Part shown: one piece after another, positions 5,907 through 33,152 of the stretch
Position numbering within the stretch: position 1 is the first letter of the stretch
Layout: the number at the start of each line of letters is the position of its first letter
From: a phage
NCBI GenBank assembly: GCA_020318295.1
Contig: GCA_020318295.1_4859.1
DNA: 37,697 nt
Reading direction: 5' to 3' (one strand)
Position numbers and translations under genes: made by a program
The notes under the pieces: generated by a model
What the model saw: the letters and a program-made list of their open reading frames with translations, nothing else
Told to the model about the DNA's origin: nothing
Databases searched by the model: none

Positions 5907-7520
5907 TCATTTCAACAGCGCAGCAGTCGTTCTTTTAATCACGTTGTTAACCGGATTGATTTTGAAACTGCCGTCTGTTGCAAACCAGTAGTTTTTCGAA
6001 CTGACCCACTTCCGATTTTCCTCGAGCGCTTCGGTTGACATCGGGCAGTTTGCTGAGCCGGTGTCACCATCGTAGTCACCACCCAAGCCCCCTAATCGGG
6101 ATGGGTGCGGTGCCATGGATTCCACAAAGGTTTTCACGGTACGGTCAGGGAAGCTAATTGCACCCTTCTCTTTTAACGTGACCCAATCGTCTTCCAGTTC
6201 ATGCAAATAGAGGGAAGAGGTGGTGGTCTCCAATCTTATGGTCGAGGAGTAAGTCGAACCGCGTCCCGTAACCGGATAACGCGTGATGAACGAGAAGTAG
6301 TCATTCCAAATATCGTAACCTGACAAATAGAGGAGTTCCGCTAAGCTCAGTCCGCGGACAAGCTTACGGTCACGTCCTTCCGGCAGGTCTTCAATATCGT
6401 AAAAGATTTTGAAGCTGCGTTTGTCCTGGTAGATTAATGCCACGTAATGGTCCGGATCAATCATCAGCGGTTTATGTCGAAGCTCGCGCGCTTCCATTCT
6501 GTTGATGAGCGTTTCGATGCCATCGTCGGTAGTGAAAAGGTCATACACCCGCCCGGAGACTTCCAGGAACTCACGCTTGAGTGTTTTGGTGTTAACGCCG
6601 TATAAGTTACCGTCCCCTGCCCGGATGTTACTGAGGTAACGTTCACGGATGTGGTATTGAGCCACAGGCAGTAATGCCTTCAGGGTTTGGTACAAACCGA
6701 TACGGGTATCCGTTGGACGAATCGCATCTTCGCGACCCATGACCTTGGAACCGGTTGAGAATGAAGACAGTACGTTACGCGTACCGTTCATTAACTTACG
6801 TGACGTCACTTTACGACGTGCAAAACCACCTTTACCGTCTTGGATGTTGAAAAAGTACATCCAGATATCATTAAAGGTTTGTTGGAGCTTCCAGCGAACC
6901 GGGTCAGTCAGTTCCGTTCGCGTACTGCGGTCGGGGATTGCACGTGCCAGAGAAATCAGACGGCGGTAGAGTCCGCCAATCTCTTCTTCTTGGTCGCGGC
7001 CATCCTGACGAATGACCAAATCACGTAATCCCGCAGGCAGAACCAGCACATAGCGGCTGAGACTGACCGGACGGAACTTATTGAAGAAATCGACTGTCTC
7101 GTCGCGACGCATCGATTCGTTGCGTCCCGGTGTCAGTTGTTCGTAGTAGCGTAGGAAGAAGTTGAAGCCGGTGTCTGCACCTTTATCACTGGGCAGAGCC
7201 GGCTCGAAGTCTTTTTCTTTCTCATTCCAGATAGCGAATCGCTTCCCGGAACAGATTTCTTCGTACAGCTGTTTCAGCTGGAACAATGCCAAACAAACGG
7301 TCGGTGAAATGATATCCAGTTTGATATCAATGTACGAGAACGTTGAGTCTCGTGCTTCGCTCCCTGTGAGGCCAAAAATTTCGGTTGAATACAGTCCTTC
7401 AGGGTGAAAGTTTTTCGTCAGTCCCTGAAAGGTGTCTGTTGTTGTAACTGGTTTTAAATGCGACACCAGGGACTTGTTGACGTTTAACAAGTAAAAGTCA
7501 ACCCAGTTTAGCTTTCTCAC
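5907..7520 (-). CDS. multisubunit RNA polymerase beta' subunit, N-terminal portion with DxDGD catalytic motif (537 aa)
   Basis: YVLVLPAGLRDLV...DG...GGLYRRLISLA resembles E. coli beta' [20 protein letters not shown]...LYRRVINRN; GKGGFARRKVTSRKLMNGTRNV resembles [28 protein letters not shown] at 6063..6077 sits where NADFDGD does. GTG start with AGGAG 9 nt upstream. Confidence 0.7.
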   Translation of the reverse strand: MRKLNWVDFYLLNVNKSLVSHLKPVTTTDTFQGLTKNFHPEGLYSTEIFGLTGSEARDSTFSYIDIKLDIISPTVCLALFQLKQLYEEICSGKRFAIWNEKEKDFEPALPSDKGADTGFNFFLRYYEQLTPGRNESMRRDETVDFFNKFRPVSLSRYVLVLPAGLRDLVIRQDGRDQEEEIGGLYRRLISLARAIPDRSTRTELTDPVRWKLQQTFNDIWMYFFNIQDGKGGFARRKVTSRKLMNGTRNVLSSFSTGSKVMGREDAIRPTDTRIGLYQTLKALLPVAQYHIRERYLSNIRAGDGNLYGVNTKTLKREFLEVSGRVYDLFTTDDGIETLINRMEARELRHKPLMIDPDHYVALIYQDKRSFKIFYDIEDLPEGRDRKLVRGLSLAELLYLSGYDIWNDYFSFITRYPVTGRGSTYSSTIRLETTTSSLYLHELEDDWVTLKEKGAISFPDRTVKTFVESMAPHPSRLGGLGGDYDGDTGSANCPMSTEALEENRKWVSSKNYWFATDGSFKINPVNNVIKRTTAALLK

Positions 7521-7549
7521 TTTTAAGCTCCTGAATTGGAAGAAACATT

Positions 7550-10500
7550 ATGGCAAAAAGAGGCAAAGACGGTTTCGATGATATCGATTTAGATAGACTC
7601 GACGACTGGGATGATTTCGGTGAACCACCCCGTCCCAAAGACGAGAAAAAACGAAGCCCGATACTCAGTACCCTGAATGTTGCCAGGAAGTCGGCGTTGT
7701 CAACTATCTGGCCAGAAGGGAAACGTGACCAAGTTATCCTCAAGGGGATGCCTAAGCCGGCAGCTGATGCATACGAGGGCTATCAGTCAGCGGCAGCTGC
7801 AGCAAAGGACATTTACGCCCATACGAAAGGGGAGCTTGAGAAGACCGAGCGCACGCTGAAGATGCAAGCGCGTCAACTCGGTCCGACAATGAAGAAATAC
7901 TTGCCGGATGCAGTTACTAAACGCTTCGACAAGTGGTCAAAATCTGACCAGTTAGATTACCAGAACTACGATCCGAATCAGGCATTGATGGATCGTGAAC
8001 TGGGCGACGTATTCTCAGGTGTGCCAAAGGACGCCGATGAGCAACGTCAGCTGCAGGATCGCATGGTAGAGGACAAGCTCCGTGACAGCATCAAAGAGAT
8101 GCGCGCGGATGCAATGCACCAAACCATGATTGGGATGGCGAAAGATATTAACCTGTTAACCGGGTTAAGCCGTGGGGTATTCTTAAACATCGAGCGTAAG
8201 AAGCTCGAATTGCAATACCGCACCCTGTTCGCCATTCAAGACATCGTGAAGATGAAGCAGTCGGAGTTCGATCGTAACACGCCTGCTTTAGAAGCCATCG
8301 TGAAGAACACGGCACTGCCGGATTACGCGAAGGAAGATTTCTCAGAAGTCCGTTGGGCGAACGTTAAACGCCAGGCTGCGGAATGGATGAACCCGTTGCG
8401 TTATGCTGACGGGTTTATGGACATGATTCGCGAAAATACCAAGAAGAAAATTTCTGGTATATTTGGCGAAGGTCGTGGTTTGTTAGAGTCCGTTCTCGGC
8501 ATGGGTGTTGAAGACGATTTCGGCATGAGCGATAGCTCTTCGTTGACTGCCGAACGTCGCAAAACAAATGCTCGCGATAAAGCAACTGCATGGGGTAGCG
8601 GATTCCTTGCGAAGAAACTACTCGGCCCACAAATCGAGAAACTCCAGAAATGGACTCGTGAGGAGATGGAGAAAAATCCAGAGGTCATGAAACGCCTGCA
8701 GAAGGGCGCGTTCACCTTTGGTAATCTTTCCTCTATCTCGAACTCAGCTATCGCAGGCGAAACGCAAGGACCGTTGGCGGATTTGTTCCGGGTATTGAAT
8801 GAACTCGGTATTGTCCAACCGTTAAACCGCGAGAAAGCTTTTCTTGATGAGCGTAATGGCGAAACGTTAAGCCGTTCGGCGAAGTTTGACCGCAAAGCGT
8901 ATCTTAGCATAGTTGAAGTTATTCCTGCCTGGCTGGCAGAGATTAACAAATCTGTTCGTCGTGGCTATGGCGAACATGCCGACCTGGAATATGACATCAC
9001 TAGCCGTGGTTTCGTAGACCGCAAAGTGGTCGGTAATCGTGTACGAAAAGCGGTTGCAAATGATGAGCAGCGTCTGCGTCTTCAGAATTCCATTAATAGC
9101 ACTGTGGATTTTGTTGACCGCGGCAAAACACTCTCGCAGAAGGATCGTCAGCATCTTGCCGACTATATTGAGTCGCGTGCCTCGCAGGGCCGTGCATTCG
9201 ACGTAGAAGCAATTTTGAAAGACCCGATGCATCTTCATCGGTATATGCCAGGAAACTCTGCAGAACGCATTAAGGAAGCGTTACAGGGGCATTCTGATAG
9301 CCTGGTCGGTGGTAGCAACGAATTAAGTAACGAACTGGCACGCAAAATCTCCACAGTGCAGTCATCTATCACCCAACGTCAGGCAATTATCGACGAGGCG
9401 GTGAATATTTACGGCGAGCGAGCGTTGCGTGATGCGGGTATCTTTAACTACGACGCGAAGAGTGACACCTTCGGCGTGGATAAAGACCTGTCCGATCCCT
9501 ATACCTTGTTTAATGACTTGGCGATGGGTAAGACACGCAGCGGGCGTGCATTGACTCGTGACCAGGAGATTCAACGTAAGCTGCAAAATGGTTCGGCGTT
9601 AGGCGACTATCTGCGCCGAATGAACCAAGGGGCAAGTGGTGGTGCCGATGACACGTCGTTACCGCCGGCTTTACGTGGCGGTGGTAAAGGCCGCGGAATG
9701 TCGCCTCGGCAGCTAGCCGCGGTTCTCTACGGTGAAACCTCGACTAACTTTGTTGAATTGTTGAGTCAACGTAACCGTGGCGAAGAAGCGCCACGGAATA
9801 ACTTTGACGGTATCATCGAAGCGATTCGTGGTAACAACAACAGTGACACTCTCCAGAAAATTCTGGAACACGTCAGAAGTATGGACGAAGAAGGGGTTCT
9901 CCTGGCTTCGTTAGCAGGGGGTGCTGGTTCTGGTGATGAAGAAATGGGTCCGCCTCGCCCTGGCGGTGGTAGCGGTGGCGGTAGACGCCGTCGTATTATC
10001 ATCGGTGAGGATGGGCTTATTCGTCGTTGGGGTGGTGTGTTGTTCGACACCGCAGCAGGAATCGGTGGCTTTGCGAAACGTGGTGTTAAGGGTGCCTGGA
10101 ATAAACTGAACCAGTTCGGTGGCTGGGCACGCGGTAAAGTCGCAGGAATGGGTGGCGGAGAAGGTCCTGGTTTCTTAACCCGGATGCGTGGCCTTATTAG
10201 TGGTAGTGTCCGTGGGGGCTTTGAAGCAGTAAGCTCTTTCGGTAAAGGACTACTGGGTATCCGCGACATTTACGATGACCACGGTAATGTTGTTCTGCAG
10301 GGCGCACGCCTGGAAGCTGGGGAATACTACCAGGTTATTGATGGTAAGATGGTTCAGTTGAAAACACTGGACGACATCAAGCTGGGGAGCGACATTGTTG
10401 ACTCCGCAGGTAATCTGGTATTAGCGGCCGCTGACTTAGCCGCAGCCGGTAAACTCCGCTACTATAAAGGCGGGAAAATCCAAGCGCTGACCCAAGGTCT

Positions 10501-13500
10501 GGCCAGTAAGATTGGTTTAGGCTTTAATAAGGTGGCTAAGCTACCGAAACGGTTCCTGGATTTCCTGTCACCAAAAGCGGGCAGCATCGTTGGTAAGATT
10601 AAGGACTGGCTGAACGAGATTCCGGAAGGCGAAGAAAAGACACGCCTCCAGAAAGCGTTCAATCGCGTAACGAGCTTGCCGGGTAAAGTGCTCGGTTTTG
10701 CGAAACGTGGTGTCGATCGTCTGAAAGACATGATTACCGACAACCCACTGACGCGTTGGTGGAAAGGCCGTAAAGATGGTGGGGGTGGTGGTTTCAGTCT
10801 CTTCTCATCAACCGGCAAGAAAACCAACCACATCCTTATCCGTATCTATAAACTGTTGAACCAACGTTTACCGGGCGATCCGGAAGACGAAAGTTGGACA
10901 GAGGAAATGGAGAAGGGCGTCGGGGGTGGCGGTAGTACGATCGGTCGTGCAGTACGCGGGGCGTATGATCGTGCGAAAGCGTCATTGTCTGAACGTTTTG
11001 GTGGACGTTGGTCAAGAACAAAAGCGTTCTTTGGTCGTGGACGTGACCGCCTGCGTGGTTGGTTCAGTGGTTTCCGAGGCCGGGCTGGGGATATGCTCGA
11101 TGGATATCGTGGAGCACGACACGACATTGCTACACGTTACGAAGTTGAACGTCGGTTGGCTGGACGCGATGACGATGTTGCTGAGTTTTATCGCAGCCAT
11201 TTGAACGCGAAAGGTGGCCTTTCTGGCCGTAAAGTCTACGGCGATGCGAAGGAAGACCTTGAGACCGCCCGTGATGCAGCAGGGAGGGTTATCAACAAAG
11301 GGAAGAATGCCGCCAAGTCAGCAGGTGCAAGGTTATTCGAACGCTTGGACCGAATGATTGGCTTGCAAGAGATGTCGTGGTTTAACACCATGCGCGAATC
11401 AGTATCCCGTGCAGGTGGCGACGATGGCATTATTCGTACCATGTTTGCGAAGTTCGGTAAACGTAACAAGCCGCCTGAAGGTGATGAAAAACGCGACTAC
11501 TTTAACTTCTTCAAACGTTGGCGTGAGAAACGTAAGGAGAAGAAAGAGAAAGCGCAGGGCTCCAAAGGGAAATCTGGCGGTCTGTGGGATATGGTGAAAG
11601 GCTTACCTATCATCGGTCCCATCGTCAGTATCTTGGGAACTGTGGGTAATATACTCGGTTCTATCACGAAATGGGGTGTGTTAAAACCCGTAGGTCTTTT
11701 AGGTAAGGCTGCGTGGAACGTTGGTAAGTTCGCAGTAACCCGTTTGGCGGCACCCGCGGTGTCCGCTGTGGCAACTGCAGCGTCTGCCGTCGTGACAGCA
11801 GTGGGCTGGCCGGCAATTCTTATCGGTGGCGCGATCGCTGCGGCAGGTTACGCCGCGTACAAGATCGCAACGACTACCTATACCCAGTACCTGGATAAGA
11901 TGCGTTTAGCTCAGTACGGTTTCCGTGATTACGATAAGTGGTCGTCGGACGACGGGGCGAAGGCGCGTTACTTAGAAGACGCATTGCGTGAGTATGTGTC
12001 TTACGCGGAAGATGGCCAAGCCAGTCTCCGCGGGCTAAGTGGAAAAGACGTTCAGAAGTTAGCTGAAGGGTTCGGTATCAACGTTGAGGAAAAAGGCGAG
12101 ATGTTGGCCTTCCAAGCGTTTATGCTTCAGCGCTTCATTCCGATTTATCTCCGCTGGATTACGGCACTGAAATCGATGCCGAACAGTATCCAGTTGGCTG
12201 ACGTCGGCGACGCGAAGAAAGTATCGAAAGAGGACATGCAGACACTCTTCAACAAAATGAAGATGACTAAGGATGCAAAAGCGTTCTCTTCGTTAACTGA
12301 CCCACGCAAAGTCAACCAAGGTTTCTTCTCGAAAGCTTGGGACGTTGTAACCTTTACACCGAAGGAGTTTTTGAGCGGTGAAGAGGTTATGGAAGTGCAG
12401 AATGAAGTTGAGCGTGCAATCAAGTTCAGAATGGACGATAAGAAAGCACGTAAGTACGGAATGGCACCGGCTGTAGAGGGGATTAAGTCCGCGGGCGTTG
12501 ATGAAGCTATCAACAAACTTGGACAGTTGGATAACGAACGTAATAAAAATCTGGCGAAGGTAGAGGGTTGGGAAGACGGAACAGAGCAGGTTCAGATTCA
12601 GGTAGACTGGAATGCGGTGCTCGACCAGAAAGACATGAATGCGATGGAGTCGGTACGTTGGAAGACTTATGGTTTTACCACCATCGACAACGCCACACGC
12701 ACGTTGATTACGGTATTCGAGAAAAACGTCATCAAAGACATTGACGTGAAAACCGCAAGCTACAAAGGTGATTGGAAGAAAGCAATCGCCTCAATGGTTC
12801 CAGACGCTATCGGCACACCGAAAGAAGATCGTTTGAAGCGGTGGTTCTTTGACCGTTTCTTACCGGTATTCATGACGTACTTGGTTGGGGTGAAACGCTA
12901 CCTGCCAACAGCTGATCCGCTGAACTTGAAACTGACCGGCGGTTACCTGTACGAAATCAGTTTGATGATGTCAACAGCTTATAGCTTGAAGGGCGGTATA
13001 AGACAGTCGGTGTGGGAAGTGAATATCAACCCATTAGGGGGCGATGCTAACACTAATCCGTTGTCTATCAAAGCCGAGCTGGAAACGCTGAAGCTGTTGT
13101 CAAAAGAAGCTGACCTTGCCGTGCGTAACATGATTAAAGCCATTAAAAATAATGGCAAGCGTGCACGCTGGAAGGATCGTAACAAGAACCGCAGTTCTCT
13201 GGAAGTCACCGGTGAAGATGAAGAAGACTCGAACATCAGTTCGGGAGATTCTTTGTCATCTGACGGTGCTCGCGCCTCAGGCTACATTCCATCGGGCACG
13301 AGTGGCGGTGTGCCGGGTAACTTAGGTCAAGTCGTCGATGCGGTCGGTGGTGTGCGGAACTACGCTGCAATGACCACTGGTTCGTCTTCGATTAACCTGA
13401 GTGATGTGAAAGACGGTGATTATAAGTCACTGGCTGAAAAATACCCGATAGAAATGTTGGGTAGAAAGGGTGCGTTGAACGTTCCGAATATCAAAGCATT

Positions 13501-14671
13501 GATTACCGATGCAGCGAACATGATGGGCGTGCCACCTGCAGTGGCGTTAGCAATGGCTAAGGCGGAGTCCGGATTTAACTACACCGCTAAAAACCCGTAT
13601 GCTTCGGCGTCTGGGTTGTTCCAGTTTGTTAACGGCACGTGGGACGGGATGATGAAGGGGTATTCGCGGAAGTTTGGTATTCCGCGTGTTAACCAGATGG
13701 ACCCGTGGGCGAATGCTATCTTGGGTGTGCAGTTCATTCGTGACAACATCCAACAAGCACAACGTGACCTGGGTGGTAAAGCACCACCTCCAGCCGTGGC
13801 TTATCTGTACCACTTCCTAGGTGCAGGCGGCGGTAAGAAATTCCTGGAAGCGTGGAAGCGTAATCCGAATATGGCGGCATCGAGTGCTCCTGGGATTACA
13901 TCTGCAATACTGAGAGGGAATGCCAACGTCTTCTACAGCAACGGTCGTATACGTAGCGTAGATGGGGTTATTCAGGAACTGAACCGCCGCATGGGTGCAA
14001 TTTCCGCCAACGAAGTCGCCGCCGATCCGAGCAAGACGAAGGATATGGTTGCAGGATTGTCGCCTAATTCACCAACCAACCCGGCAGCAGCAATGGGTGC
14101 ACCGGCCGCTAATGACCCGAGTCTGTCGCCAGCAGATAACCTGCCAGCAGATAATGCTAATCGTCGTGATGACGCATTGACGCAGAAAGGGGCCATGGCG
14201 GCACAAGATGCAATGGCTACCGCCGCAGGTAATGTAGGACCAGCAGCACCTACACCAACCACAGGCGGTACCGGAACATCCGATGCCTCAACAACGGCCG
14301 AAACCGTAGCGTCGCAAGCTGCAGCAGAAGGATTGTCTGCGACGGATGTTGCTAAAGTGAAAGCAGGCGCGGAAGCGCAGGTTAACGCAGCAGCTCGTCC
14401 AGTTGCCGCTCCAACTTCTGATGCTACAGCATCGACGCCAACGCTGAATGGTGACCCGATAGATGTTCAGCAGCTCAAGGTACTGATTCAGTCTCGCGAT
14501 TACTTGAAAGAGATTCGTGATATTTTGAAATCAAATCCAAGAGCGGCAAACGACACACGGGGTGGTAGTATCCAGCAAGCGGCAAATGTGCCTCCTCCTG
14601 GCTCAGCTGCACGTAGGCAGGAAATAACCCAACCGACACCGTCGTTAAACGTAAGTCGGAAAGCAAGCTAA
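7550..14671 (+). CDS. giant virion-associated protein (2373 aa) with C-terminal lytic transglycosylase domain; resembles phiKZ gp181-type proteins
   Basis: Single uninterrupted 7.1 kb ORF. Gly-rich low-complexity tracts at about 9900..11100, a long hydrophobic Gly/Ala-rich segment at about 11590..11870 (GLPIIGPIVSILGTVGNILGS...AILIGGAIAAAGYAAYKI), an SLT-like block near 13.5 kb, and an Ala/Pro/Thr-rich tail at about 14080..14450. Confidence 0.8.
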   Translation: MAKRGKDGFDDIDLDRLDDWDDFGEPPRPKDEKKRSPILSTLNVARKSALSTIWPEGKRDQVILKGMPKPAADAYEGYQSAAAAAKDIYAHTKGELEKTERTLKMQARQLGPTMKKYLPDAVTKRFDKWSKSDQLDYQNYDPNQALMDRELGDVFSGVPKDADEQRQLQDRMVEDKLRDSIKEMRADAMHQTMIGMAKDINLLTGLSRGVFLNIERKKLELQYRTLFAIQDIVKMKQSEFDRNTPALEAIVKNTALPDYAKEDFSEVRWANVKRQAAEWMNPLRYADGFMDMIRENTKKKISGIFGEGRGLLESVLGMGVEDDFGMSDSSSLTAERRKTNARDKATAWGSGFLAKKLLGPQIEKLQKWTREEMEKNPEVMKRLQKGAFTFGNLSSISNSAIAGETQGPLADLFRVLNELGIVQPLNREKAFLDERNGETLSRSAKFDRKAYLSIVEVIPAWLAEINKSVRRGYGEHADLEYDITSRGFVDRKVVGNRVRKAVANDEQRLRLQNSINSTVDFVDRGKTLSQKDRQHLADYIESRASQGRAFDVEAILKDPMHLHRYMPGNSAERIKEALQGHSDSLVGGSNELSNELARKISTVQSSITQRQAIIDEAVNIYGERALRDAGIFNYDAKSDTFGVDKDLSDPYTLFNDLAMGKTRSGRALTRDQEIQRKLQNGSALGDYLRRMNQGASGGADDTSLPPALRGGGKGRGMSPRQLAAVLYGETSTNFVELLSQRNRGEEAPRNNFDGIIEAIRGNNNSDTLQKILEHVRSMDEEGVLLASLAGGAGSGDEEMGPPRPGGGSGGGRRRRIIIGEDGLIRRWGGVLFDTAAGIGGFAKRGVKGAWNKLNQFGGWARGKVAGMGGGEGPGFLTRMRGLISGSVRGGFEAVSSFGKGLLGIRDIYDDHGNVVLQGARLEAGEYYQVIDGKMVQLKTLDDIKLGSDIVDSAGNLVLAAADLAAAGKLRYYKGGKIQALTQGLASKIGLGFNKVAKLPKRFLDFLSPKAGSIVGKIKDWLNEIPEGEEKTRLQKAFNRVTSLPGKVLGFAKRGVDRLKDMITDNPLTRWWKGRKDGGGGGFSLFSSTGKKTNHILIRIYKLLNQRLPGDPEDESWTEEMEKGVGGGGSTIGRAVRGAYDRAKASLSERFGGRWSRTKAFFGRGRDRLRGWFSGFRGRAGDMLDGYRGARHDIATRYEVERRLAGRDDDVAEFYRSHLNAKGGLSGRKVYGDAKEDLETARDAAGRVINKGKNAAKSAGARLFERLDRMIGLQEMSWFNTMRESVSRAGGDDGIIRTMFAKFGKRNKPPEGDEKRDYFNFFKRWREKRKEKKEKAQGSKGKSGGLWDMVKGLPIIGPIVSILGTVGNILGSITKWGVLKPVGLLGKAAWNVGKFAVTRLAAPAVSAVATAASAVVTAVGWPAILIGGAIAAAGYAAYKIATTTYTQYLDKMRLAQYGFRDYDKWSSDDGAKARYLEDALREYVSYAEDGQASLRGLSGKDVQKLAEGFGINVEEKGEMLAFQAFMLQRFIPIYLRWITALKSMPNSIQLADVGDAKKVSKEDMQTLFNKMKMTKDAKAFSSLTDPRKVNQGFFSKAWDVVTFTPKEFLSGEEVMEVQNEVERAIKFRMDDKKARKYGMAPAVEGIKSAGVDEAINKLGQLDNERNKNLAKVEGWEDGTEQVQIQVDWNAVLDQKDMNAMESVRWKTYGFTTIDNATRTLITVFEKNVIKDIDVKTASYKGDWKKAIASMVPDAIGTPKEDRLKRWFFDRFLPVFMTYLVGVKRYLPTADPLNLKLTGGYLYEISLMMSTAYSLKGGIRQSVWEVNINPLGGDANTNPLSIKAELETLKLLSKEADLAVRNMIKAIKNNGKRARWKDRNKNRSSLEVTGEDEEDSNISSGDSLSSDGARASGYIPSGTSGGVPGNLGQVVDAVGGVRNYAAMTTGSSSINLSDVKDGDYKSLAEKYPIEMLGRKGALNVPNIKALITDAANMMGVPPAVALAMAKAESGFNYTAKNPYASASGLFQFVNGTWDGMMKGYSRKFGIPRVNQMDPWANAILGVQFIRDNIQQAQRDLGGKAPPPAVAYLYHFLGAGGGKKFLEAWKRNPNMAASSAPGITSAILRGNANVFYSNGRIRSVDGVIQELNRRMGAISANEVAADPSKTKDMVAGLSPNSPTNPAAAMGAPAANDPSLSPADNLPADNANRRDDALTQKGAMAAQDAMATAAGNVGPAAPTPTTGGTGTSDASTTAETVASQAAAEGLSATDVAKVKAGAEAQVNAAARPVAAPTSDATASTPTLNGDPIDVQQLKVLIQSRDYLKEIRDILKSNPRAANDTRGGSIQQAANVPPPGSAARRQEITQPTPSLNVSRKAS
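13480..13900 (+). other. lytic transglycosylase (SLT family) domain within the giant protein
   Basis: MGVPPAVALAMAKAESGFNYTAKNPYASASGLFQFVNGTWDG...AYLYHFLGAGG: the catalytic E-S dipeptide followed by a GLFQF block, as in family-1 lytic transglycosylases and phage gp16-type virion lysins. Domain boundaries are approximate. Confidence 0.7.
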
Positions 14672-14674
14672 TCG

Positions 14675-14696
14675 TAGGGGGTGGCAACACCCCCTA
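14675..14696 (+). other. perfect 9-bp stem hairpin with GCAA (GNRA) tetraloop, 3 nt after the giant-gene stop
   Basis: TAGGGGGTG-GCAA-CACCCCCTA read directly from the sequence; it overlaps the GTG at 14681 that the ORF track uses as the start of the next gene. Confidence 0.5.
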
Positions 14697-14719
14697 ATCA
14701 TCTTACAGAGAGGTTTTAC

Positions 14720-16942
14720 GTGGAAGCAAGACAACTAAAAGATTCAGGATGGGTAACCGGCCTGTTTGGCGGTACAACCGCACAGCGCGATGAGCGCTTC
14801 CTGGGTTTGCGTCGTTACTCTAACGCGATGCTCTCGTTTGAAGATACCACGATGGGTGGTTCGCAAGCGTTAAATGCGCCGCCGCAGTTTACGATGTTTG
14901 CTGATCCGAGTTCAACAGGTGCCTTTGCACAACCTGATGCGGGTCGTGGCTCGTACTCAAAGTACGTTAAAGGTCAAGACCAACGTGGTTCCTATCGTCT
15001 AGGGACTTTCTATTACGAAGCTATTAACCAAAACAGTTTTTATCTTCATTGTCGTTTCGGTAAACCCCGATACATCGGGGTCGCTGCATTCTTCGCGAAT
15101 ATGTACGATTCCAACCTAGCGTACCTGGCACGCACGGGTGATTACCCAGGTATGTTACGTGCGATGGGGACGTATGTTGCCGCCGCAGCAATATGGGCTG
15201 CAGTAGGCACGGTTGCCTTTGCGGTTATTCTGATTACGCCACGTATGTTGAAGATGGTGCTGAACAAGCAGACTTCTCGCTACTACTACGTGAAACCGAC
15301 AATGCATTTGTATCTGCGCGCTGTGCAGAATATGGTCAATACCCAGTTAGTTTATCGCCGATTGGTACCAACGGGTGTGTTAGGGACTTTCCAGCTTGCT
15401 AATGCTGTAGATGGGTCTGAGAAAGGCGGTACTGCTAATAAGTACAACGGCGACCGCAAAGAGTGGTACTCCATGCTGCCAGAAATCTGGACAGCTGATG
15501 GTGAGTTCGATATCTATCGAATGATTAACCGCTACCAAACATTAGCCAACTACCAGGCGAAAACCATCGATAAAATTCGTAAAGAGTCGAGTAACGAAGA
15601 GGACATGGCTCGTCGTTTGCGAAACTTCTATCTGGAAGCGACGTACTCAACAACCCATTTGGAGAAAGCTGCGCAGTACGAGGTTTCTTTACGTAACCTT
15701 GAATACGTAGCCAAAGCCGGTAAAGGGTACGATGCCGGTTTTGAAAACGTCGATAACAAAGAAGACGAACTGGTAGCAGGGATGAACGGAAGCATTCAGG
15801 ATGCTCAGTCACAAGGAGGTAAAGCTGAAAACTTCGAAAACGAAGGTGATGCGCAACGTAAAGAGCTTGCCGAGCGTATGGCACAGGTTGAAAAGAACCA
15901 GGCTCAGGTTGCTAAAAGTCAGACCGAAGCAAACTCAATGGATGAGAATAATCTCGACATTGGGAAGATTGAAAACTGGATGGACCAAGGCCAGAAAGAA
16001 TCTGTCGGTAGCGTCTTCAAAGACTATATCGATATTTTAGAAGGCGCTATGGATGGGTTAACTTCGAACATCGCTTCGGAGATACGCAATGGTTCGCAGT
16101 GGATTACTTGGCGTGTTGATGGACGTGATACCGTAGGGCGTTCGTTCTCCAACACCACCAAAGAACCTGAAATCTCTGGCACGGTTAACTCTGCCACACA
16201 GAAAGCACGTTCTTTGGAAGTAAACCTCTCCGGTGGTAAGACTGGTTTCGACGCAGTCGATGGTCTCATTACTGGGTTGAAGTCCGCCTTTACAGGCGCA
16301 CTCGATTTCTTGCATTTATCAGGGATTATGTCACTGTACAACTCGTCGGTGATTGACTTCCCGGAAGTGTGGGACTCCTCAGACACCTCAGGTGACGATA
16401 TCTCGCTAAGTATTCCCCTTCGCTGTTGGTCGGGTAACGACTTAGATGTGTTTCAGGATCTGATTGTCCCGTTGTCGTTCTGGTTAGCGGCAGTTTGTCC
16501 GCTAGCAACCGGTAAACAATCGTTTACACACCCGTTCTATCTGGAATGTTATTCTCGCGGTCGTTATTCCATGCGTAATGCCATGGTAACTAACCTGAGT
16601 CTCCAGTTCGGTACAGGTGGTTTAGGTTGGCGTGCTGACGGTCTGCCGTTGTCGTGTGATATACAGGTAACTATTCGTGACCTGTCGCGCGTCATGTACA
16701 TGCCGATTGTAACTGATATTGGTGTGTTTGATGATGATAACAAGTTCAGTGAATTTATGTCTGTGTTGGGCGCTGCCACGCTTTACGAGCGTACCAACGG
16801 TATCGCGCAGGCTAAAATCAATGCGTCTATCTGGGCGCAGAACTGGGCAAGTGCTTGGTCGCAGGGTAGCATCGTCAACGCCGCCTTAGATATCATACCA
16901 GCCCGACAAATCGCGAACATTTTCCTACCACAAGCGCGTTAA
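14720..16942 (+). CDS. hypothetical protein, possible virion or membrane protein (about 740 aa; ORF track start 14681)
   Basis: Long ORF. I prefer the in-frame GTG at 14720, preceded by AGAGAGG plus a 6-nt spacer, over the track's GTG at 14681, which lies inside the hairpin. Contains a hydrophobic segment AAAAIWAAVGTVAFAVILITP. No recognisable catalytic motif. Confidence 0.6.
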   Translation: MEARQLKDSGWVTGLFGGTTAQRDERFLGLRRYSNAMLSFEDTTMGGSQALNAPPQFTMFADPSSTGAFAQPDAGRGSYSKYVKGQDQRGSYRLGTFYYEAINQNSFYLHCRFGKPRYIGVAAFFANMYDSNLAYLARTGDYPGMLRAMGTYVAAAAIWAAVGTVAFAVILITPRMLKMVLNKQTSRYYYVKPTMHLYLRAVQNMVNTQLVYRRLVPTGVLGTFQLANAVDGSEKGGTANKYNGDRKEWYSMLPEIWTADGEFDIYRMINRYQTLANYQAKTIDKIRKESSNEEDMARRLRNFYLEATYSTTHLEKAAQYEVSLRNLEYVAKAGKGYDAGFENVDNKEDELVAGMNGSIQDAQSQGGKAENFENEGDAQRKELAERMAQVEKNQAQVAKSQTEANSMDENNLDIGKIENWMDQGQKESVGSVFKDYIDILEGAMDGLTSNIASEIRNGSQWITWRVDGRDTVGRSFSNTTKEPEISGTVNSATQKARSLEVNLSGGKTGFDAVDGLITGLKSAFTGALDFLHLSGIMSLYNSSVIDFPEVWDSSDTSGDDISLSIPLRCWSGNDLDVFQDLIVPLSFWLAAVCPLATGKQSFTHPFYLECYSRGRYSMRNAMVTNLSLQFGTGGLGWRADGLPLSCDIQVTIRDLSRVMYMPIVTDIGVFDDDNKFSEFMSVLGAATLYERTNGIAQAKINASIWAQNWASAWSQGSIVNAALDIIPARQIANIFLPQAR

Positions 16943-16964: not shown

Positions 16965-17516
16965 ATGAGTTTATTTGGAAAGACCGCAAAAGAGCTGGTT
17001 TACGATCTCATCGTGTCTCAGAATCCTGCACTGACTGGTAAGGGCGTGACCATCGATAAATTGTCGTTCGGTAACCCGGCACACATCACCGCAGCCGATC
17101 CTGACCCAGAGCAATACACCAGACTGAACACCAACCTTGATGTTTCTGGTATCATTGAGAAGGGTACGTTCGGTAAGATGGGTCTTACTTATCGACGATT
17201 GGACGTAGCACATTTGTTTGAGAACGTCGTGTTGTCTGTCGATGGCACCGGCGTGTCGACCGCTGCCGATCTTGTTCCCTTGCTGCGAACCAAATACAAT
17301 TGGTTAATCGACGCAACCGAGATTTACGCGACAGAATCAATGACTTCCTCCACGAAACACAATCTGCGTTTCAATGGAAAGTCACTGGCGTGGACGGGTA
17401 CGGTTGAAGTTTATTTGACCGAAGTTCCGAGCGATGGTGTCGATATCAGTAAACTGATTACCGTTACTGAGTTGAACGGTCTGGTTTATGACGTTTCCGA
17501 CATGGCTCAAGCGTAA
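16965..17516 (+). CDS. hypothetical protein (183 aa)
   Basis: ORF with GAGG upstream of the ATG, immediately followed by an intrinsic terminator. Confidence 0.55.
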   Translation: MSLFGKTAKELVYDLIVSQNPALTGKGVTIDKLSFGNPAHITAADPDPEQYTRLNTNLDVSGIIEKGTFGKMGLTYRRLDVAHLFENVVLSVDGTGVSTAADLVPLLRTKYNWLIDATEIYATESMTSSTKHNLRFNGKSLAWTGTVEVYLTEVPSDGVDISKLITVTELNGLVYDVSDMAQA

Positions 17517-17533
17517 CAAAAAAATAAGTAATG

Positions 17534-17576
17534 CGAGTACCCCGTTAGGGGTACTCGTTTGCTTTTATTTTTTAGC
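17534..17576. terminator. bidirectional rho-independent terminator between convergent genes
   Basis: Stem CGAGTACCCC / GGGGTACTCG with loop GTTA, followed by TTTGCTTTTATTTTTT on the plus strand and preceded by an A-run that reads as a T-run on the minus strand. Confidence 0.7.
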
Positions 17577-18925: not shown

Positions 18926-18964
18926 AACAAAAAAAATAAGTAGGGTGTCCATATGGACACCCTA
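18926..18964 (-). terminator. rho-independent terminator (minus strand)
   Basis: Perfect palindrome TAGGGTGTCCA-TA-TGGACACCCTA followed on the minus strand by CTTATTTTTTTTG, then the AAGGAG RBS of the 313-aa gene. Confidence 0.65.
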
Positions 18965-23980: not shown

Positions 23981-24019
23981 AAGATAAAAAATAAAGATAC
24001 CCTCTCCCGAAGGAGAGGG
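23981..24019 (-). terminator. rho-independent terminator (minus strand)
   Basis: Stem CCCTCTCC / GGAGAGGG with loop CGAA, followed on the minus strand by TATCTTTATTTTTTATCTT, then the AAGGAG RBS of the 120-aa gene. Confidence 0.65.
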
Positions 24020-33110: not shown

Positions 33111-33152
33111 TACCCACTCCCCTTACGGGAGTGGGTAGGCTTTATTTTATTT
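33111..33152. terminator. bidirectional rho-independent terminator between convergent genes
   Basis: Stem TACCCACTCCC / GGGAGTGGGTA with loop CTTAC, followed by GGCTTTATTTTATTT on the plus strand and preceded by an A-run that reads as a T-run on the minus strand. Confidence 0.7.

Follow-up and report, generated by a model that had tools for sequence, protein, structure and literature searches.

A conserved stem-loop at the gp239/gp238 junction of SPN3US-like phages and its possible role as a leaky terminator

Why does a perfect, GC-rich hairpin stand between the stop codon of a giant gene and the ribosome-binding site of its neighbor? The question is raised by a stretch of phage DNA of 37,697 nucleotides (GenBank assembly GCA_020318295.1, contig GCA_020318295.1_4859.1; referred to as the window in the following), whose source is an SPN3US-like Salmonella jumbo phage (Seoulvirus). 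The giant gene (7550..14671, plus strand; 2373 aa in the ORF list) is a homolog of SPN3US gp239, with which it shares 97-99% DNA identity, and ends in a TAA stop codon at 14669-14671. Its product matches PHROG 3201 and a transglycosylase, the transglycosylase region being C-terminal, and is homologous to PHIKZ181 of phage phiKZ (E 2e-29). We regard it as a tail tape-measure-like protein; gp239 itself has been termed the tape measure protein (PMC5105663, PMC5694885). The following gene on the same strand (14720..16942; 740 aa, GTG start) is a homolog of gp238, matches PHROG 3181 and is homologous to PHIKZ182 (E 1e-40); the corresponding RefSeq CDS of SPN3US has 2223 nt. In SPN3US, gp238 is essential and tail-associated (PMC5105663). 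The third gene of the presumed operon is a gp237 homolog (16965..17516, plus strand), which encodes a virion structural protein of 183 aa. The gp239-gp238-gp237 block is closed by a bidirectional terminator-like hairpin at 17533..17558 with T-rich tails on either strand, found at 202322-202347 in our hairpin census of SPN3US.

The hairpin between the first two genes occupies 14675-14696 and reads TAGGGGGTG-GCAA-CACCCCCTA. On the plus strand, its 5' arm UAGGGGGUG (14675..14683) and 3' arm CACCCCCUA (14688..14696) form a perfect 9-bp stem with seven G:C pairs, capped in the sense strand by a GCAA tetraloop of the GNRA type (14684..14687), which is closed by the Watson-Crick pair G14683:C14688. 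It begins 3 nt past the gp239 stop, just as an initial annotation of this DNA had described it, and ends 10 nt ahead of the Shine-Dalgarno (SD) sequence of the gp238 homolog, AGAGAGG (14707..14713, plus strand); the intervening U-poor tail and spacer is AUCAUCUUAC (14697..14706, plus strand), a segment that is U-rich in most related genera. The fold is stable, as that annotation had expected a folding calculation to show: the isolated hairpin has a free energy of -17.3 kcal/mol, each G:C pair of the stem forms with a probability of ~1.0 in a 141-nt context, and a 76-nt region that includes it has a folding z-score of -2.8 relative to dinucleotide shuffles. The window contains four perfect hairpins with a 4-nt loop and a stem of 9 bp or more, against 0.18 expected from 100 dinucleotide shuffles. 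GC-rich, on the sense strand and downstream of a gene, the structure has the stem-loop of a terminator. An Rfam scan of 14400-15000 at E<=10 returned nothing relevant to it, the sole match being an unrelated mir-44 hit on the minus strand (14431-14502) that scored 16 bits, the gathering score being 54. The idea that it represents a repeated genomic motif was dropped, since in the 240-kb genome of SPN3US the pattern GGGG-N-GNRA-N-CCCC is essentially confined to this site.

The hairpin is real, and it is kept at the gp239/gp238 junction throughout the phiKZ-like giant phages. All 32 closer relatives examined have a hairpin at the same junction (13 of 13 GenBank relatives from five genera and 19 of 19 IMG/VR loci), 2-15 nt past the stop and directly ahead of the SD, and so do seven distant phiKZ-like phages. 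Across 19 distinct sequences from relatives, 91% of the alignment cells are paired and five of the nine pairs show double changes. The GGGG core of the 5' arm is invariant; above this G4:C4 core, two pairs (alignment columns 9/18 and 10/17) have undergone compensatory changes, occurring as four to five pair types and never unpaired. The loop-closing pair is G:C in 18 of the 19. Of the 19 distinct sequences with a 4-nt loop, 17 have GCAA or GAAA; Miami and KpLz-2_45 likewise carry GAAA. The covariation score is 0.429, compared to 0.132 in shuffles, none of which reached it (0/500), and it collapses in slid registers. A comparison of pEa29 with SPAsTU reveals a clean U-A to A-U swap within otherwise identical flanks. 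Moreover, the structure belongs to the mRNA strand: G-U pairs, such as those in Kwan and pEa11, are confined to the sense strand and would be A-C mismatches on the opposite one, and the loop is mostly GNRA in the mRNA sense. The RNAalifold consensus of the 19 sequences consists of the hairpin alone.

The hairpin also bears on where gp238 begins. The ORF list starts this gene at the GTG at 14681-14683, within the 5' arm, whereas the initial annotation preferred the GTG at 14720, preceded by AGAGAGG and a 6-nt spacer. This layout is exact, and the choice is upheld by the RefSeq entry of SPN3US, which uses the equivalent of 14720, as well as by the conservation across genera of the GTG or ATG start, the SD and the N-terminus (V-D/E-A-R-x-L-x-D-x-x-W-V), with a purine-rich SD at the same place in all relatives. 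The GTG at 14681 is buried in the stem (unpaired probability 0.001). Its region offers no in-frame start in 10 of 11 relatives, CR5 being the exception with an unrelated in-frame ATG in the SD region, and in SPAsTU a 1-nt deletion puts this GTG out of frame. A search of the supplements of PMC5694885 yielded no N-terminal peptides of gp238. For annotation, the gain is that the essential tail gene gp238 begins at GTG 14720, and not at the spurious start at 14681. We also considered a gp239-gp238 fusion by stop readthrough or frameshifting and rejected it: although the two genes lie in one frame in the window, two in-frame stops (TAA TCG TAG) stand between them, and the spacer over which the hairpin would have to act as a stimulator measures 42-80 nt in relatives and is not a conserved multiple of 3.

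Could this stem terminate transcription? Intrinsic terminators carry a U-tract in the roughly 7-9 nt directly 3' of the stem, but the tail in the window is AUCAUCUUA. The 9 nt that follow the stem (ATCATCTTA) contain four T with a longest run of two, in agreement with the earlier observation that a canonical U-tract is absent, and the hairpin at 14675-14696 was not picked up by a terminator scan with a minimum of 5 T in 8. By the rules of bacterial RNAP, termination would be poor here. The initial annotation had gone one step further, from the missing U-tract to a function other than termination, and this step is not supported. Most relatives have U-rich tails (e.g. CCCCCUUUUCUUU, GUUUUUUUU and UUCUUUUUU); a U-tract is present in many orthologs, for instance in Asesino, Kwan, pEa11, L023, L026 and L034, and the phiKZ junction holds a mapped read-through terminator, T087. 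Degenerate U-tracts are likewise found in the Klebsiella phage Miami (AAUCAGGAG), in L024/L029 (AUCUUAAAG) and in Phobos (UUCAUUGG). Across relatives, the tail has anywhere between 3 and 8 T in 9 nt, whereas the stem is never lost, a pattern which suggests that selection acts more on the hairpin itself than on canonical termination. In SPN3US, the U-tract has decayed and termination is therefore probably weak.

The data for T087 come from the ONT-cappable-seq study of Putzeys et al., whose supplement was our source for TTSs in phiKZ (bioRxiv 10.1101/2023.10.13.562163; also PMC10914365). At the PHIKZ181/PHIKZ182 junction, T087 is placed at 196087 and classed as 'intrinsic' with -13.2 kcal/mol (bioRxiv 10.1101/2023.10.13.562163, PMC10914365). 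It sits at the end of a U-tract, 16 nt ahead of the PHIKZ182 ATG, and is passed by the transcript unit TU142, which covers PHIKZ182-184 (bioRxiv 10.1101/2023.10.13.562163). From the ONT-cappable-seq 3' ends in phiKZ alone, termination and exonucleolytic trimming to a hairpin are indistinguishable. The two junctions are orthologous, with a giant tape-measure/transglycosylase gene followed by the gp238/PHIKZ182 homolog, and share the order of stop codon, strong stem-loop, short tail, SD and start codon. They differ in the hairpin itself: that of phiKZ has a C-first stem (GGAGCCUCCC-UAUU-GGGAGGUUCC), is capped by UAUU and is followed by a clear UUAUUUUG tail, whereas in the window the stem is G-first, the loop consists of GCAA and a U run is absent; the two hairpins have no detectable sequence similarity. 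Furthermore, 3' ends have been mapped at T087, whereas the window hairpin is known from its sequence; our literature search found no SPN3US transcriptome or transcript 3'-end maps for SPN3US-like phages.

Other known terminators resemble the hairpin in part. The conserved terminator motif of the phiKZ type, BCCYCCCCHWWDGGGRRGGBYTTATKYYGT, combines a C-rich 5' arm with a G-rich 3' arm and YTTAT (PMC10914365); the window hairpin does not follow it, having the opposite polarity (GGGGG...CCCCC) and, as the closest match to YTTAT in its tail, a CTTAC located 6 nt past the stem. Rho-independent terminators with GNRA or UUCG loops are similar in their GC-rich stem, extra-stable tetraloop and position directly after a stop, but their defining U-tract is missing in the hairpin of this genome. 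Another mapped TTS of phiKZ, T106, consists of a UUCG hairpin with the tail GUAUAUCGUC, directly ahead of an SD and ATG. It lies at a different locus and has a different loop, but shares with the window hairpin a strong tetraloop hairpin, a U-poor tail and an adjoining SD and start, and is nonetheless a mapped 3'-end site. T106 is among the mapped phiKZ TTSs without an ARNold intrinsic prediction.

The genome of SPN3US provides further context. Of its co-directional spacers, 58 contain a hairpin with a free energy of -10 kcal/mol or lower, in most cases 3-10 nt past the stop, so the window hairpin lies exactly where the phage places its terminators. U-rich tails follow 39 of these 58 hairpins, 22 of the 39 having a UUCG loop, and about a third lack such tails. 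The median distance to the next start is 29 nt for U-poor and 52 nt for U-rich hairpins; the two groups do not differ significantly (Mann-Whitney p=0.25, Spearman p=0.09). Neither the interval from the hairpin to gp238 nor the final 300 nt of gp239 showed a recognizable promoter motif, which is consistent with gp238 relying on read-through; sigma-70-like sites and an early-promoter-like motif derived from SPN3US intergenic regions are absent near the junction and the hairpin, respectively. Late promoters of such phages are tiny, so a gp239-internal promoter like P097 of phiKZ is possible. An 11-mer, AGCAAGCTAAT, is common to the end of gp239 and P097, but its reading frame differs and other genera have not kept it, and we consider it a coincidence.

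We interpret the hairpin as a terminator of the intrinsic type that is leaky (an attenuator) and in addition caps the gp239 mRNA at its 3' end, and put the probability of this reading at roughly 0.5. The structure, conservation, covariation, strand-specific features and position of the hairpin are demonstrated by the sequences, as is the orthology of its junction to that of T087; the formation of 3' ends at this site in SPN3US-like phages, and its efficiency, we infer. The hairpin would then be a sense-strand structure of the late mRNA, inherited from the phiKZ-like common ancestor as the terminator stem-loop after the tape-measure gene. Once the multisubunit non-virion RNA polymerase has passed the gp239 stop, the G5/C5-cored, GNRA-capped stem would fold in the exit channel, and a fraction of the complexes would terminate or pause just downstream of it. 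The remaining complexes would continue through gp238 and gp237 until they meet the bidirectional terminator at 17533-17558. On transcripts ended at the hairpin or trimmed back to it, the 3' stem-loop would guard the 7-kb gp239 message from 3' exonucleases, and the hairpin would thereby set the ratio of gp239 mRNA to gp238/gp237 mRNA. In the Seoulvirus lineage, the U-tract decayed and the first tail residues became part of the stem (UA...UA); termination efficiency is consequently probably low in these phages, and 3'-end protection may now dominate.

Part of this scenario might suffice by itself. The hairpin could be a purely post-transcriptional element, which in Seoulvirus causes no termination and does no more than block 3'-to-5' exonucleases or mark a processing boundary in the gp239-gp238-gp237 polycistronic mRNA, giving the upstream segment a longer half-life. 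Intercistronic stem-loops that stabilize mRNA are known, for example, from the REP elements in malE-malF and from the Rhodobacter puf operon. By analogy, a stable hairpin within an operon and without a U-tract could shield the upstream segment from 3' exonucleases, although the window hairpin, whose motif occurs once in the genome, is not repeated as REP elements are. A role in RNA stability or processing had already been proposed in the initial annotation, and it stays a live rival or a secondary function: the GC-rich stem is invariably kept despite degenerate U-tracts in the window and several lineages, about one in three strong co-directional hairpins in SPN3US has no U-rich tail, and this phage is annotated with a 3'-5' exoribonuclease and a ribonuclease. 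As the full explanation we consider it unlikely, given that most orthologs keep U-rich tails and that the phiKZ counterpart is classed as an intrinsic terminator, its 3' ends mapping where the U-tract stops. Inspection of the tail by eye also revealed no match to the cleavage preference of RNase E.

A long shot is that the four invariant, always G-first GGGG/CCCC pairs, together with the freely covarying upper stem and the GNRA loop, might constitute a U-tract-independent termination or pause signal recognized specifically by the non-virion RNA polymerase of the phage or an associated factor; this combination persists in at least six genera, with or without a U-tract. It appears quite improbable that the hairpin is a translational regulator, which tunes re-initiation or coupling between gp239 and gp238, as the initial annotation had suggested, or insulates the gp238 RBS from upstream structure. 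Placed between stop and SD, the hairpin must be unwound by a ribosome terminating on gp239, and the short layout of hairpin, SD and start is conserved. However, it pairs with neither the SD (mean unpaired probability 0.47) nor the start codon (0.73), and the weak second helix of the MFE structure is not conserved. Neither the window folds nor the RNAalifold consensus contained a conserved SD-sequestering fold or a translational operator, and nothing supports the coupling idea; in addition, the stop-start spacing and the relative frame vary among relatives, and the same layout in phiKZ coincides with a mapped TTS.

A very improbable reading makes the hairpin the protected 5' end of a gp238 transcript, started at or just before 14675 by an unrecognized late promoter at the end of gp239. 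It would fit P097, a phiKZ late promoter that lies within the 3'-terminal part of PHIKZ181, and late promoters of these polymerases are so short that they are easily overlooked; yet the phiKZ TSS lies 103 nt upstream of the TTS and not at the hairpin, the TATR-type ending of the listed phiKZ late promoters is not found directly upstream of the window hairpin, no motif there is common to the relatives, and the 11-mer mentioned above is absent as a conserved element from other genera. Finally, a DNA-level inverted repeat without an RNA role (a protein-binding palindrome or cruciform) or a chance hairpin is scarcely credible, since the arms do form a perfect inverted repeat in DNA but the upper stem varies freely and yet stays paired, the G-U wobbles and GNRA loops exist only in the sense orientation, and conservation in >30 genomes along with the shuffle controls excludes chance.

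The hairpin is thus ordinary operon punctuation and not a new kind of regulator, and it opens no new class of mechanism. The gp239-gp238-gp237 block is best annotated as a single late operon with an internal terminator-type hairpin. Among non-coding features, only a few, this hairpin downstream of the tape-measure gene included, can be followed across the phiKZ-like jumbo phages. Were it a U-tract-independent signal, it would be a regulated attenuator that sets the stoichiometry of tape-measure to baseplate mRNA inside the phage nucleus. Along with its relatives, it is also a potential test case for how the non-virion RNA polymerase responds to hairpins with and without U-tracts, and natural variants with strong, weak and absent U-tracts already exist for such a comparison.

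The sequence around the gp239/gp238 junction matches the Salmonella jumbo phage SPN3US and about 30 close Seoulvirus relatives at 97-99% identity. Its giant ORF (7550..14671, plus strand, 2373 aa) is the counterpart of SPN3US gp239 (RefSeq ACQ60_gp027), described in work on that phage as its tail tape measure protein of 259 kDa (PMC5105663, PMC5694885), and has a C-terminal transglycosylase region. It is followed by gp238, an essential, tail-associated protein (PMC5105663) that matches PHROG 3181, and by gp237, a 183-aa virion protein. Upstream, gp239 is divergently flanked by RNA polymerase beta subunit genes, the nearest of which (5907..7520, minus strand) is separated from it by only 29 nt (7521-7549), so that the promoters of both genes must overlap or sit within coding sequence. 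In several SPFM records within GenBank LR535901-LR535917 (hits H24-H30 and H46-H64), the region aligns as 16-40 short pieces at ~98% identity, which points to numerous small indels there, probably errors of sequencing or assembly.

The junction reads TAA (14669-14671)-TCG-TAGGGGGTG-GCAA-CACCCCCTA (14675-14696)-ATCATCTTAC-AGAGAGG (14707-14713)-TTTTAC-GTG (14720), and a re-reading confirmed all details of hairpin, Shine-Dalgarno (SD) sequence, spacing and GTG in the initial annotation. The stem comprises nine perfect pairs, including seven G:C, and is capped by a GNRA tetraloop. The proposed fold is indeed stable, with -17.3 kcal/mol for the isolated hairpin and a probability of ~1.0 for its G:C pairs in a 141-nt context; only 1 of 200 dinucleotide shuffles of the 76-nt region was as stable (z = -2.8), and the window holds four hairpins of this quality against 0.18 expected from shuffles. 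The stem also lacks a U-tract, as had been claimed: 4 of the 9 tail nucleotides are T, with no run, and a consensus terminator scan did not report the site. The 3' arm with the first tail bases (CACCCCCUAA; hairpin region 14675-14698) is similar to the anti-Shine-Dalgarno end of 16S rRNA (CACCUCCUUA), and the 5' arm (GGGGG; GGGGGAGG in relatives) to an SD; this likeness may simply follow from stems built of G/C runs.

The proposal that gp238 starts at 14720 and not at the GTG at 14681 within the hairpin is well supported, given the conservation of the former and the burial and non-conservation of the latter. The RefSeq start of SPN3US gp238 (CDS of 2223 nt) is the equivalent of 14720, and 11 relatives from five genera keep the start codon (GTG, or ATG in Derbicusvirus), a purine-rich SD 5-7 nt upstream and the N-terminus V-D/E-A-R-x-L-x-D-x-x-W-V. 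An in-frame start matching 14681 is missing in 10 of these 11, the exception being CR5 with an unrelated in-frame ATG within its SD region. In Asesino and phiEaH2, an in-frame stop lies just 6 nt before the gp238 GTG, and a 1-nt deletion between hairpin and start in SPAsTU puts the hairpin GTG out of frame. In the window, the GTG at 14681 is fully base-paired (unpaired probability 0.001). Peptide data for gp238 were sought in the supplements of PMC5694885 and not found. In Erwinia phage pEa_SNUABM_29 (L003), the deposited start of the gp238 homologue lies 33 nt downstream of the conserved GTG (1914 vs 1947), so that the intergenic spacer seems longer than it is, at 80 nt; this start is probably mis-called.

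A strong hairpin a few nucleotides past the stop codon and directly ahead of the SD is present at all junctions collected, i.e. in 13/13 GenBank relatives (Seoulvirus, Erskinevirus, Wellingtonvirus, Machinavirus and Derbicusvirus) and 19/19 IMG/VR loci, several of which are metagenomic lineages. It usually consists of G4-5, two to three variable pairs, a tetraloop, the complement and C4-5. In a loop-anchored alignment of 19 distinct sequences with a 4-nt loop, 91% of cells are paired, compared to 77% in column shuffles (0/500 reach the observed value), although this percentage leans towards structure, as the alignment is anchored on detected hairpins. Both sides change at five of the nine pairs, the covariation score is 0.429 vs 0.132 in shuffles (again 0/500), and shifting the 3' partners by 1-3 columns makes the signal collapse. 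Four G:C pairs are invariant, while the two pairs above the G-run occur as four and five pair types and are unpaired in no sequence. Such double changes are plain in the raw sequences, for instance in SPAsTU (GGGGGTG/CACCCCC) and pEa29 (GGGGGAG/CTCCCCC), whose flanks are otherwise identical. Read in the mRNA sense, 17 of the 19 loops are GNRA, and the G-U pairs of Kwan/Wellington and pEa11 would turn into A-C mismatches on the opposite strand; both features point to a sense-strand RNA and led us to reject a palindrome acting at the DNA level. A known Rfam family was likewise rejected as its identity.

By contrast with the stem, the U-richness of the tail differs among relatives. Tails are clearly terminator-like in Erskinevirus (UUUUCUUU), pEa11 (AUUCUUUUU), L034 (GUUUUUUUU) and L026 (UUCUUUUUU), but poor in L024/L029 (AUCUUAAAG), Phobos (UUCAUUGG), Derbicus (UUUAACUGG) and SPN3US (AUCAUCUUA); in Seoulvirus, the first two tail residues pair with an upstream UA and lengthen the stem. 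The stem is thus more strongly constrained than the U-tract. Across genera, a G-first G4:C4 core and a GNRA loop are strictly retained, whatever the U-tract; this is the one mildly unusual point, with a small chance that it reflects a polymerase-specific, U-independent signal.

Both flanking genes have homologs in phiKZ, gp238 in PHIKZ182 (E 1e-40) and gp239 in PHIKZ181 (E 2e-29), and the two junctions are therefore orthologous. The phiKZ spacer reads TAA-TCTATTAAA-GGAGCCTCCC-TATT-GGGAGGTTCC-TTATTTTG-TC-AAGGAG-ATTCCT-ATG, and the last U of its tail TTATTTTG, 16 nt before the PHIKZ182 start, is the position of T087, a TTS mapped at 196087 and classed as 'intrinsic' (-13.2 kcal/mol; Putzeys et al., bioRxiv 10.1101/2023.10.13.562163 supplement; PMC10914365). 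From the late promoter P097 (TSS 195984, inside the PHIKZ181 3' end), transcript unit TU141 ends at T087 after 103 nt, and TU142 reads through to T088, covering PHIKZ182-184 (bioRxiv 10.1101/2023.10.13.562163). The phiKZ element is thus a mapped leaky terminator ahead of the downstream ribosome-binding site. In the same dataset, T106 was mapped 4-5 nt past a UUCG hairpin (bioRxiv 10.1101/2023.10.13.562163); its tail, GUAUAUCGUC, is followed directly by SD and ATG, so U-poor hairpins in such a layout can mark 3' ends in the phiKZ-like family. A strong hairpin also occupies the orthologous junction in six of six further distant relatives (KpLz-2_45, Ea35-70, LucasX, FLC4-4C, Yong XC31 and Miami). 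Four have clearly U-rich tails and FLC4-4C a less U-rich one (UAAUAUGAUUC); Miami, with a GAAA loop and no U-tract (AAUCAGGAG), resembles SPN3US. The 11-mer AGCAAGCTAAT at the gp239 end (14660-14672) also occurs just upstream of the P097 TSS (phiKZ, L020 8469-8481), which we consider a coincidence, since its reading frame differs and other genera do not keep it.

In the whole SPN3US genome (assembled from L015-L019), about half of all intergenic spacers contain a strong transcribed-strand hairpin. Among the 58 co-directional spacers with a hairpin of <= -10 kcal/mol, the hairpin typically begins 3-10 nt past the stop codon. Tails are U-rich in 39, of which 22 carry UUCG, by far the commonest loop; this anatomy is classical for intrinsic terminators. 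The remaining 19, including the gp239/gp238 hairpin, have <=4 T in 9 nt. Our hairpin is thus sited like SPN3US terminators, within a U-poor minority, which tends to be nearer to the next start (29 nt vs 52 nt for U-rich hairpins), though without significance (p=0.25). Its motif occurs once in the genome, which excludes a dispersed repeat. Many SPN3US hairpin tails contain YTTTATTT, recalling the YTTAT of the phiKZ terminator motif. Two other U-less hairpins follow very large virion genes and precede AAUCA and an SD, in SPN3US at 145506-145523 (minus strand, L017; GCCCC-AAUCAAAGGAG) and in Klebsiella phage Miami at about 648-673 (L045; CCCACC-AAUCAGGAG), compared with CCCCC-UAAUCAUCUUACAGAGAGG here; AAUCA could be a common tail feature or chance.

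Elsewhere in the window, two convergent genes are separated by a 10-11-bp GC-rich hairpin (GCGAGTACCCC-GTTA-GGGGTACTCGT; 17533-17558) whose tails are T-rich on both strands; this bidirectional terminator-like site closes the gp239-gp237 block. Perfect intergenic hairpins at 18941-18964 (minus strand, ATAT loop followed by CTTATTTTTT), 24000-24019 (minus strand, UUCG loop) and 33111-33137 (11-bp stem, flanked by convergent genes) look like this phage's ordinary terminators. A ~30-nt motif, TTTCAGATATATATTACYTAGGTGAGA, has at least seven intergenic copies in SPN3US (about 4433, 56300, 65419, 94245, 113992, 165693 and 223283; L015-L019), with none on the window plus strand near the hairpin. This motif looks like the phiKZ early (virion RNAP) promoter, which is AT-rich and has a TATATTAC core; it is probably the early promoter of SPN3US.

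The best-supported reading of the gp239/gp238 element is a terminator-type intercistronic hairpin; its main rival is a purely post-transcriptional stabiliser. The initially suggested tuning of translational coupling between the two genes finds no support, as the hairpin contacts neither SD nor start codon, a separate MAFFT and RNAalifold run on the stop-to-start region returned it as the sole conserved helix, leaving no alternative conserved pairing, and stop-to-start spacing and frame vary among relatives. Readthrough or frameshifting is rejected, as TAA-TCG-TAG lies between the genes and their shared frame (14669-14722), not kept in relatives, looks accidental.

Earlier work has described GNRA- and UUCG-loop terminator hairpins and, for phiKZ-like phages, read-through terminators that precede downstream genes; in the searched literature, we found no annotation or discussion of this element in SPN3US-like phages. 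SPN3US, which encodes a homologue of chimallin, is presumed to form a phage nucleus (PMC9365700), so late transcription is probably uncoupled from translation, and we infer that the nearby stop codon should not hinder hairpin folding. As a terminator-type element, the hairpin would partially end the gp239 transcript and cap its 3' end, and some polymerases would pass it into gp238-gp237, as far as the bidirectional terminator (17533-17558). In Seoulvirus, termination would probably be weak, given the decayed U-tract.
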